64,000 nt of DNA from Octopus sinensis. Its lineage: Eukaryota. The translations under genes were made by a program, and so were the position numbers. The notes under the pieces were generated by a model. It was not told where the DNA came from. It was given only the letters and a program-made list of their open reading frames with translations, and did no database searches. The stretch's first letter is position 1. Each line of letters opens with the position of its first letter. Positions 20,274 to 62,619 of this stretch are shown here, in pieces. The stretch spans positions 68,262,001 through 68,326,000 of the forward strand of contig NC_043008.1 in NCBI RefSeq assembly GCF_006345805.1, in the 5' to 3' direction.

Positions 20274-20995
20274 TATATATATATATATTATATATATATA
20301 TATAATTAATTAATAGGGTGAGAGAATTAGATACTAATTTAATATATGTCCATTCAACCCAAGTGGCCCAGTGCCTCGAGAAACCTGGATTATTATAATA
20401 TTTTATAATATATTATAATATTATTTTATACAAAATAAATATAAGAGAATGGTCACTATGTGGCTCATTCTAGCACTAGAAAATCCAAAAGGTTCAACCA
20501 CAAAACATGTTTCACATGAAAGTCATACGATCGTAATGACTTTTTTTGGATTTTCTAGTGCTAGAATGAGCCACATAGTGACCATTCTCTTATATTATTT
20601 TTATATAATATATATATATAAATATATATATATATAAATATAATATAATATATATATATATATATAATATATTATATATATATATAATATAATATTAATA
20701 TATATAATATAATATATATATATATTTAAATATATATATATATATATAATATATATATATATATATATATATATATAATATAATATAATATATATATATA
20801 TAATATATATATATATATTATATATAATATATATATATATATAATATATATATATATATATATATATAATATATATATATATAATAATATATATATATAA
20901 TATATATATATATATATATAATATATATATATATATATAATATCTATATATATATATATATAATATATATATATCTATATATTAATAATATATAA
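20274..20995. repeat. Large (TA)n tract containing a fold-back insert (arms about 20441-20490 and 20544-20593)
   Basis: About 50-bp perfect inverted repeat ATAAGAGAATGGTCAC...AATCCAAAA; the minus strand of the loop has the hammerhead 3' half GAAAC-AT-GTT at 20504-20513. Confidence 0.85.
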
Positions 20996-21090
20996 CGGGA
21001 AGCTATATGAAATAGACAAAAGACGAAGGCAGGTGGAAAACAAACAAACAATTGTATTAGTATGGCGCTCAGGAAATATAAATAAAACAA

Positions 21091-21128
21091 GTCTTAACGT
21101 TTCGAGCCTACGCTCTTCAACAGAAAGA
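21091..21128 (-). ncRNA. Minimal hammerhead-like motif in the Penelope 3' repeat, variant core CUGUUGA
   Basis: UCUUU-CUGUUGA-A-GAGC-GUAG-GCUC-GAAAC-GUU-AAGAC. Confidence 0.6.
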
Positions 21129-21304
21129 TACACAGAGAGAAAAAAAACACAGAAAGAAGGAGAGAAAAAAAATGCATGCAGTAACTAACGAATCAACATG
21201 GCGATCTGATTTCGGCCAGAGGTCAAAGATCAAACATGAGACGCGAGAGCGAAATAAGGGGAGATAATAGGGTTGATAATAGGGTTGAATGACCAGCTCC
21301 AACA

Positions 21305-21590
21305 TGAGGGTGTGTGTGTATGAGAGAGTATTAGTGCGTATGAGAGGTCTGGACGTGTGTATGTATAGGGTTGGTGTATGTATTAGTATGTATAAAGGTG
21401 TTGTGTGTGTGTGTGTGTTATGAGAGAGTATTAGTGCGTATGAGAGGTCTGGACGTGGTATGTATAGGGTTGGTGTATGTATTAGTATTATAAGGGTGTG
21501 TGTGTGTGTGTGTGTGTGTAGAGAGAGTATTAGTGCGTATGAGAGGTCTGGACGTGTGTATGTATAGGGTTGGTGTATGTATTAGTATGT
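21305..21590. repeat. About 110-bp tandem repeat x3 in the Penelope 3' region
   Basis: GAGAGAGTATTAGTGCGTATGAGAGGTCTGGACGTG...GGGTTGGTGTATGTATTAG three times. Confidence 0.9.
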
Positions 21591-60140: not shown

Positions 60141-60390
60141 AGTGAATGAAACAGTTCTAGTCCTGTAGAAGCTCCTTCTATATAATAAATTAATTTTACT
60201 CTGCTATGTATTGAGTACCTTATTTACTGTGGTTAACCCCGAATCAACCCGGGACCTACATATATATATATATATATATATATATATATATATATATATA
60301 TATATATATGTATACACATATATATATGCATATACATATATATATGTGTGTGTATATGTGTGTATATATATATACATATATATATATATA

Positions 60391-61646
60391 TAGGGGTTGG
60401 ACAAAATAATGAAATCACCTTAAAATTTCAAACAAACTTATTTTAATATGGGGTAGGACTTCCTTTGGCAGTAATTACAGTGAATTCTACAAGGTATGGA
60501 CTCGTACAAAGTTTGAATTGTTTCCAAAGTAATTTTTGTCCATTCTTCAGCTAAAACATTCTCCAGTTCTTGTAGTGATGATGGTGGAGGATATTGATTC
60601 CTTACTTGTTTTTCTAAAATGCACCATAAATGTTCAATAATATTGAGATTTGGGAACTGTGGTGGCCAGATGAGATGTTGAGCTTCATAAGAATGTTCCT
60701 CATGCCATTCAGTAACAACTTTAGCTGTGTGAATTGGTGCATTATCATCCTGAAAGATTACGTTTCCCTCCGGAAACAGTTCTGCAACCTTAGGATGAAT
60801 TTGATCAGATAAAATGCTTAAATAGTCATGACTATTAATTCTGCCATGAAGGCAAACCATTGGGCCAGCAAATTTCCCAGATCGTCACAGATCTTCTTCC
60901 ATGTTTAACAGTTGGAAGAAGGCAGTCTGGGTCAAATGCTTCTTTTGGATGTCTCCACAGATATACTTGACCGGTGGTCAGAAAAAAGGTAACAGATGAC
61001 TCATCTGAGAAAATAACATTCTTCCACTGCTCTGGGGACCAATTCTGTAGGATTTTACTCCACCCTAAATGCTTTGCAACATTTGTTCTTCAAAGTAGTA
61101 GTTTTCTGATTGCAGCCCCCCAGGAAATCCGGCTTTGTGCAGCTCCCGTCAAACAGTTTTTGTGGAAACTGGGTTCTCAAGGTGGTCATTAAACTCTGCA
61201 GTAATTTTGGGAGCTGTACTTTTGTGATCCTTTCTAACAATTCGCGCAAGAGTCTGACAGTCCCTATCTGAAAGTTTTGGTTTTATTCCAGAGTTTTGTT
61301 TCAACGAGGAGGTTTTTTCCTCTTTCTCAAATGCTGTCATTACTTTCGAGACAGTACTTCTTGATACACCAAACATTTCGTCTATTTTCATTACGCTAGC
61401 ACCTGCCATACAAGCACCAACAATTTGATCTCTTTGAAAGTCTGATAGATCTGTCATTTTAATGAATTTTAATTACGTTTTTCTGATGATATTTGAAAAG
61501 AAACAGCAATTATAGCAAAACATATTAAGCAACACTAATAATAAATCAAAAAACATAAAAATAAACAAGCTTTTGACAGTTTTATATATATTTCAAAATT
61601 ATGATGCTATGATGTTAGGTGTTTCCATTATTATGTCCAGCCCCTG
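60391..61646 (-). mobile_element. Full-length Tc1 element with frameshifted transposase (61457-60438)
   Basis: TIRs AGGGGTTGGACAAAATAATG / CATTATTATGTCCAGCCCCTG in TA tracts; MTDLSDFQRDQIVG, VIFSDES, FQDDNAPIH, WPPQFPNLNIIEHLW. Confidence 0.95.
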
Positions 61647-61899
61647 TATATATATATATATATATATAATATATATATATATATGTGTGTGTATGCATAT
61701 TTATGGAGATGTACTTGCATAGCAAGTGGTTTGATCTGAGATCGTGTGCTGAAACGAAAACAATTGCAGCGTGGAAGGTGTTTGTAAGCCATTTAAGAAA
61801 CACACAAAAGCCTTCGATTCACTTCGACATTTAAGTTTAATTTGTCAAAATATTTTTGTTGCTTTAAGACTGCGACCTGTTCACTGCAGCATGGATTTA

Positions 61900-61946
61900 T
61901 GTCAGTGAACAGGTCACGGTCTTAAAGCGACGAAAATATTTTGACA
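61900..61946 (+). ncRNA. Hammerhead-like motif with G3-C8 core in fold-back insert 61700-62028
   Basis: UGUCA-GUGAACA-G-GUCAC-loop-GCGAC-GAAA-AUAUUU-UGACA; the mirror arm 61762-61886 has GUCGC. Confidence 0.7.
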
Positions 61947-62619
61947 AATTAAACTTAAATGTTGAAGTGAATCGAACGGCTTTTGTGTGTTTCTTAAATG
62001 GCTTACAAACACCTTCCACGCTGCAATTATATATATATATATATATATTGTTAACACTGTGGTAACGAAAAGACATAAAAGTGCTTAATACTACTTCATA
62101 CTGGAAATGCATAAAGTCTTATGTATGTTAATTTATGTGAGAGAATCCCTGTTCACTTCAAATAGTTAGCATAATAAAGAAGAGAAATTTGGATGTTAAG
62201 TGAACTATTCAGCAAAAGTATTGAAGTGAGGAAGTACATTAGTGAAATAAGTGTGTTTGTGGCTGTGTGTGGGGAGAATTACTATTTGATAGGAGAGTAA
62301 AAAGCAAACAGGAAACAGCATCAGTTGTAAAGAAAAATATGCAAAAAATAAAAAAATTTACAGGTATGATAAATAGTGTAAAGTAGAATGTATCAATAAT
62401 CATGAACTTAGTCAATATAAGAATACATCATAAGGATAGATCAGTGTTATTAGGTTAGAGACATGTTATAGACACACTTGATTAGTAAGACTGAGAGGAA
62501 TGAGGGGAGGGGAGAGAAGAACTTGAAGATGAGTGAGTGAGGAAAGAAGGGACAGGGAAACAAAATGCAATAAGAATGAGAAGATTAAAAAGAGATGTAG
62601 AAAGAAAATAATTGTTTCA

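Follow-up and report, generated by a model that had tools for sequence, protein, structure and literature searches.

Endonuclease-bearing (EN+) Penelope-like elements (PLEs) are described as inserting at microsatellite targets as copies truncated at the 5' end and accompanied by a neighboring copy in inverted orientation, a tail being present on one arm only (PMC8557442, PMC3846280), and the origin of Penelope inverted repeats has been called an open question (PMC8557442). For PAc, the Poseidon element of Anolis, both target strands are reported to be nicked and extended from two internal sites of the RNA, which serves as template in its uncleaved form (PMC11167929). A covariant U3-A8 core has been described for metazoan PLE hammerheads (PMC4209133). 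We analyzed a stretch of 64,000 nucleotides (nt) of the Octopus sinensis genome (GCF_006345805.1, contig NC_043008.1, positions 68,262,001 to 68,326,000), hereafter the window, which contains seven fold-back inserts that are head-to-head pairs of PLE terminal-repeat fragments. These inserts represent six families, named A (insert at window position 52100), B (48298 and 56478), C (60141), D (61895), E (41658), and F (20530). Taking into account the copies of these families elsewhere in the genome, we consider it highly probable that such fold-backs arise when two target-primed reverse transcriptions run off the capped 5' end of an uncleaved RNA and the complementary DNA (cDNA) ends are then joined.

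Distribution of Arm Ends

Copies of the families were gathered with queries located 3' of the hammerhead core, and their 5' ends were measured against real long copies. For family C, a similarity search with the 3' part matched nothing, whereas a 24-nt pattern did find copies. Of the 98 sites of a tail-end pattern, 92 were examined, including two pairs of local duplicates, and this pattern favors a rare class of flank. Random sampling of 40 segments of 10 kb yielded approximately 1–4 inserts per family, too sparse for use.

Among these 92 family C arms, picked by their tail end only, 27 stop exactly at a single base, numbered +1, and every other position has three ends or fewer. This concentration is far beyond chance genome-wide. 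An earlier note, made from the letters of the window alone, had placed the apexes of the fold-backs at or just upstream of the ribozyme core. The other arms end past -53 (19 arms), at -52 to -2 (6), at +2 to +8 (4), at +9 to +45 (22), at +46 to +58 (7), or later (7). Expressed per base, the rate of ending is 0.52 at +1, 0.015 at +9 to +25, 0.0066 at the 3' edge of stem I, 0.0017 downstream, and 0.0054 just upstream. A second set of 103 family C arms, gathered by a ribozyme-3' motif and overlapping the first set (at least one shared site), has 46 ends at -1 to +8, two at -52 to -2, 42 further upstream, and 13 later.

A tail-only search of family D gave 27 tail arms; in 15 of them the end is at +10 or earlier, and no end falls within 4 nt of the predicted cleavage site. 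Ends at -1 to +10 account for 19 of 44 arms in family B and 17 of 43 in family E. The hammerhead core starts at +4 in E, +7 in C, +19 in B, and +24 in D, placing +1 at 3, 6, 18, and 23 nt before the core, respectively. Since this offset varies by family, the wall at which the arms end does not lie at a fixed distance from the fold. Family A arms start at a tRNA-like head approximately 170 nt before the core in 10 of 30 cases and within 10 nt of the core in three, and the 32 ends of family F are spread over approximately 490 nt, with none at the cleavage site. The earlier note had asked how breakpoints are distributed relative to the core; in families B to E the pile-up is at +1 rather than at the core itself.

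A Putative Capped Transcription Start at +1

In the long copies of each of families B to E, which are rarer than the short ones, +1 is the A of a pyrimidine-AG, and a TATA-like box is found upstream: TATAAA or CATAAA at -29 in two subfamilies of C, TATAAA at -30 in E, TATATAA at -31 in B, and TATATA at -30/-32 in D. In addition, many arms that stop at +1 carry an extra G, which was counted where the base before +1 is explained by neither the template nor the partner arm. This non-template G is present in 12 of 23 family C arms by automated count (p = 4e-4 versus 19% G) and in 12 of 14 by eye, once six perfect palindromes that have decayed and three arms that match the template are set aside. 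The corresponding figures for family D are 12/18 and 10/15, the latter without off-register and tandem duplicates, plus one misfiled copy. The base before +1 in 67 long family C copies is T in 51, C in nine, A in six, and G in one. The same position stands out in the contigs of two public runs, X15 and X16 (coded as two organisms; X15 may be the source of the assembly), where the best-supported loose end on the 5' side of family D is at +1 (30 and 24 contigs), with a consensus that ends in G after an AT-only flank, and a loose end of family C is also found at +1 (24 contigs in X15 and five in X16).

A non-template G at the 5' terminus of full-length L1 and SVA copies is an accepted trace of cap copying (PMC4859970). 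From the TATA spacing together with the extra G before +1, we infer that +1 is a capped RNA polymerase II start. This would place the hammerhead, whose self-cleavage is itself a prediction, within the first 45–70 nt of the putative RNA.

The wall could also have been inherited rather than remade at each insertion, if each family had a short master copy that already began at +1 with the G. Families B, D, and E do consist mostly of short copies and have no linked open reading frame (ORF). However, short fold-backs occur in all six family C sequence types scored, and the short copies are devoid of the TATA box, have no upstream flank in common, and carry the G in only about half to most of the arms, so that a short master is an unlikely source of the wall.

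Formation of the Inverted Arm

In 10 of 27 fold-backs of family C, 19 of 35 of D, 4 of 9 of E, and 4 of 12 of B, the tail-less arm reaches beyond the tail arm on the 5' side, and in two loci (L232 and L469) the extra G is present on both arms. A single snap-back cannot generate either configuration, and two primers are therefore needed, which upholds the proposal of the earlier note that two cDNAs are primed independently. A snap-back, in which one cDNA folds via stem I or an AGCT palindrome and copies itself into the inverted arm, would nevertheless account for some features of the joins. These go through short palindromes or microhomology, and family C most often joins by a perfect apex formed at the AGCT palindrome of +1 to +4 (29 of 43 partner-explained junctions). 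Moreover, the subfamily variant is shared between the arms in 14 of 14 family C pairs (0.20 expected per pair) and in 12 of 12 family D pairs (two of them duplicates). This concordance is also in keeping with a double copying of one RNA or with a common source of two RNAs, and subfamilies active at different times would equally yield it. Contradicted by the longer tail-less arms and by the G on both arms, snap-back is a very improbable general route to the inverted arm, and it could still produce a minority of the perfect apexes.

Only one of the 92 family C arms begins at the predicted cleavage site; hence the template was nearly always uncleaved, as the earlier note had deduced from the window.

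Short inverted repeats at high copy number (one 24-mer has 5,993 exact matches, versus 0 for a control) would also be expected of ordinary miniature inverted-repeat transposable elements (MITEs) with terminal inverted repeats. This identity is refuted by the variable junctions, 34 of which are distinct among 35 family D fold-backs, and is further opposed by the unequal arms, by the many one-armed copies, and by flanks resembling target site duplications (TSDs) that vary in sequence and length. We thus give it almost no credence, in line with the position of the earlier note.

Proposed Mechanism and Weighing of the Evidence

We propose that the two internal sites of the uncleaved RNA would each be the starting point of one reverse transcriptase, and that both cDNAs would run off the capped RNA 5' end at +1 before their ends are joined. 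Transcription of this RNA would be driven by a promoter that long copies have close to their 3' end or by the pseudo-long terminal repeat (pLTR) at the 5' end. The hammerhead would adjoin the apex only through its place in the first 45–70 nt of the RNA, and it may contribute a weak pause.

Several observations weigh against this run-off reading. The RNA start at +1 is deduced from genomic footprints, the TATA-like boxes of B, D, and E were called from two or three long copies each, and that of D lies within TA-rich sequence. A G precedes +1 in neither of the two informative arms of family B nor in either of the two of family E. The tRNA-like head of family A, whose A and B boxes were read by eye, was not called as a tRNA by ARAGORN (0 in 15 loci) or by Rfam (0). 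With respect to coding capacity, no ORF was linked to families B, D, and E, nor to F, and none of the 30 family C copies examined runs from the tail into an ORF. A link between family C and an intact-looking PLE ORF with GIY-YIG (Pfam E = 1.8e-5) close to a long C copy in locus L330 was rejected, as a family C pLTR lies downstream of the ORF in 0 of 16 homologous loci; one of these loci has a separate short fold-back approximately 5 kb upstream, and the L330 case is probably a nested element. Finally, arm ends are not confined to +1: six of the 32 ends of family F, which has no TATA box, lie at -8 to +10 of the core (Poisson p = 0.002), and the ribozyme body of family C is enriched in ends (29 events, 0.0078 per nt versus 0.0017 per nt downstream, p = 4e-5).

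These last two observations speak for the cause favored by the earlier note, namely that both reverse transcriptases are halted mainly by the folded hammerhead. The same cause is favored by the position of five of the seven window apexes near a core and by the rate of ending in family C, which rises approximately 5-fold across the ribozyme body and approximately 4-fold at the 3' edge of stem I (0.0066 versus 0.0017 per nt downstream, p = 0.012). However, if the enzymes stalled, ends would be expected where stem I has its 3' edge, whereas the pile-up sits on the far 5' side, where the whole fold has already been copied; per base, the +1 peak of family C is approximately 80 times that at the stem I edge. 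The offset of the peak from the core is specific to the family, ranging from 3 to 23 nt (approximately 170 nt in A), and a stall leaves the extra G and the TATA spacing unexplained. Furthermore, the size of the in vitro product was unchanged in hammerhead mutants of PAc (PMC11167929). We therefore depart from the earlier note on this point and consider a hammerhead stall improbable as the main cause of the apexes. The hammerhead may cause a weak pause. Trimming back from +1 and microhomology in the stems would explain the same pattern, and within the family C ribozyme ends are most frequent over the 25 nt that lie closest to +1.

Beyond the run-off from a capped 5' end, a more speculative extension can be considered, which we regard as doubtful in its entirety. 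A dimeric Penelope enzyme might copy one capped RNA twice, from two internal start sites up to the cap, and yield a double "strong-stop" palindrome, and the TATA promoter of long copies, close to their 3' end, might thus spawn hairpins driven by polymerase II that resemble short interspersed elements and are dead on arrival. In such a scheme the cap-proximal hammerhead would be no roadblock and would act instead as a timer, cutting off the cap when two RNAs meet.

Fold-Back Inserts of the Window

Self-alignment of the window confirmed the seven inverted repeats where the earlier note had placed them, centered near 20517, 41658, 48291, 52100, 56479, 60131, and 61895, all with unequal arms and TA- or AT-rich flanks. 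The accompanying claim that the apexes lie at the ribozyme core stands for 41658, 48298, 56478, 60141, and 61895, where the apex is at or near a minimal hammerhead core, and fails for 20530, a copy without a hammerhead. At 52100 the symmetry center was correctly placed approximately 100 nt before the core, yet this apex corresponds to the start of the tRNA-like head.

The family F insert consists of a tail arm (20301..20534, minus strand), derived from a 535-nt tandem, retrozyme-like unit and starting 124 nt 3' of the family core without any ribozyme, and an inverted short arm (20544..20597, plus strand) that starts 170 nt 3' of the core. The family E tail arm (41536..41659, minus strand) covers element positions +1 to +126, with a U3-A8 core starting at 41656, and its short arm (41659..41734, plus strand) covers +3 to +78. 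In the first family B insert, the tail arm (48156..48292, minus strand; +13 to +146) has its core at 48286 and the short arm (48294..48364, plus strand; +3 to +83) has an internal deletion. In the second, the tail-side arm (56401..56475, minus strand; +25 to +101) starts inside the core or stem II and faces a short arm at 56478..56545 (plus strand; +21 to +88). The short arm of family A (51904..52089, minus strand) contains a deleted tRNA-like head, an (AAT)n tract, and a hammerhead core at 51996, and its tail arm (52090..52322, plus strand) has a tRNA-like head that starts at 52093 and is internally deleted, and a mutated core at 52207. The family C short arm (60072..60140, minus strand; +1 to +68) has the putative RNA start at 60139, the non-template G at 60140, and the core at 60133; the tail arm (60143..60259, plus strand; +21 to +137) ends in a TA repeat. 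Lastly, the family D tail arm (61703..61884, minus strand; +24 to +205) starts at its G3-C8 core, opposite a short arm at 61885..62028 (plus strand; +4 to +147).

When the arms of these inserts pair, hairpins of 54–174 bp result, within the 50–180 bp proposed by the earlier note; if transcribed, they would be candidate substrates for ADAR or Dicer. The A-to-G mismatches that the note suggested looking for over the arms showed no sense-strand excess in genomic copies, where A>G and T>C changes number 4 and 16 in C, 18 and 39 in D, 25 and 56 in B, and 34 and 28 in E. We observed that T>C exceeds A>G on the sense strand in C (p = 0.04), D (p = 0.008), and B (p = 0.03), which could reflect misreading of U by the reverse transcriptase or an alignment artifact in T runs.

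Two more fold-backs, at 31777-32104 (center 31940) and 10917-11221 (center 11069), have no visible hammerhead core, and the latter presumably consists of two MITE-like arms placed head to head. At 32165-32428, two family E copies are arranged head-to-tail, each starting at approximately +1.

Hammerhead Cores

Hammerhead cores were called by a minimal type-I motif (C3UGANG8A, GAAA, and NUH, or with the pair 3-8 covariant). By this motif, minimal type-I cores are located at 48286, 51996, and 60133 on the minus strand, at 61884 (minus) and 61906 (plus), and at 41656 (minus) and 41660 (plus); Rfam gave no hammerhead match in the window or in 10 loci, and no tRNA either. Core positions 3 and 8 covary by family: the pair is C-G in families A, C, and F, whereas 57 of 61 family D copies have G-C and all six family E copies have U-A. 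The family B core is mixed and decayed. Of 25 family B copies from L091 to L120, 11 have C at core position 4 and 12 have A at position 8, which suggests that the core is altered or rich in CpG. When folded freely, copies of A, B, D, and F form helices I and II; family C folds otherwise, and E is without a clear helix I.

Family Structure, Targets, and Coding Links

Each of families B to E has two fixed 3' ends, at +68 and +137 in C, +147 and +203-205 in D, +88 and +147 in B, and approximately +79 and +126-135 in E. Most inserts combine one arm that has the tail with an inverted arm that lacks it and are set in TA repeats, and an inverted, 5'-truncated partner is common, as 48 of 67 short family C arms and 80 of 108 family D arms fold back. 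The targets are AT-rich or microsatellite DNA with TA-repeat flanks, and several single family D copies have TSD-like repeats of 9–13 nt. Family F, a 535-nt tandem non-coding monomer with a type-I hammerhead core, resembles a non-LTR (non-long terminal repeat) retrozyme.

The ties of the families to a coding element are weak. ORF pieces run directly into the family A head in 4 of 47 head-bearing arms; we take them to be PLE-like from a motif, and Pfam gave no match on the three pieces scanned. Three long family C copies have, 3.3–4.2 kb upstream, a C-terminal peptide that we assume from its motif to be endonuclease-like, and an Atlas search with it gave no usable match. An endonuclease-like piece upstream of the family D copy L073 was left unused, as it lies beyond an inversion.

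Long open frames of PLE-like elements with many close genomic copies are present at L411:7402-9192 (597 amino acids) and L397:4400-6652 (751 amino acids). In the window, 20991-23675 (minus strand) is a decayed Penelope-like copy with a Cys-rich linker and a hammerhead at 21123; it gave no Pfam match and is presumably Neptune-like. The N-terminal piece of its reverse transcriptase is inverted on the plus strand at approximately 23240-23675, an inversion that looks like non-duplicating, L1-style twin priming far from the ribozyme. In four loci (L038, L041, L047, and L056), the 3' ends of long interspersed elements, with (AAT)n or A-rich tails, lie inside the (AAT)n tract of family A, which we take to be microsatellite targeting of the Dong/R4 type.

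Comparison with Known Systems

The families described here provide thousands of natural footprints in which the two arms can each arrive, independently of the other, at a single fixed base and acquire a cap-type G. The wall at +1 predicts transcription starts with single-base precision, and a hammerhead within the first 45–70 nt of the RNA would reframe its possible role. The class of the elements has already been published, as have its inverted arm and tail and the minimal hammerheads. With respect to the mechanistic reading through TATA box and cap, none of the papers listed by literature searches (supplements, e.g., of PMC11167929 and PMC4209133, and subscription journals lie outside this scope) maps PLE inversion breakpoints to a TATA-spaced capped start with a G in its title or abstract.

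The window families match EN+ PLEs in their truncated and inverted copies, in the tail on one arm, and in their microsatellite targets, and a putative TATA box, an initiator (Inr), and 5' palindromes have been noted in the pLTRs of Adineta vaga (PMC8557442, PMC3846280). The tails of B to E are approximately 50–70 nt long, versus 30–40 nt in published EN+ PLEs, and the available text of these papers neither maps the breakpoints to a start site nor ties them to a cap-derived G (PMC8557442, PMC3846280). As in our families, PAc has two internal start sites of reverse transcription bounding the tail, AT-rich targets, and use of both strands, and its hammerhead is dispensable, with uncleaved RNA as template (PMC11167929). 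The accessible part of that paper, which rests on assays where we used genomic footprints, is silent on the 5' junction and the inverted arm (PMC11167929).

Metazoan PLE hammerheads share with ours the type-I core, a putative short or palindromic helix III, the U3-A8 pair (as in family E), and opposite-strand pairs 100–700 bp apart; they differ from the G3-C8 core found in 57 of 61 family D copies, and cleavage with circular templates was proposed for them, in contrast with the one family C arm in 92 that starts at the cleavage site (PMC4209133). L1 twin priming likewise involves two target primers, microhomology joins, and a non-template G at full-length 5' ends, but L1 inversions occur without sequence duplication, whereas the two arms described here are copies of one and the same 5' stretch (PMC4859970). 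Lastly, the Drosophila virilis Penelope element has its promoter in the pLTR, and its 3' pLTR can drive downstream transcription, comparable to what we propose here; that promoter is internal and TATA-less, whereas four of our families have an upstream TATA-like box that is lost in short copies (PMC2377424).

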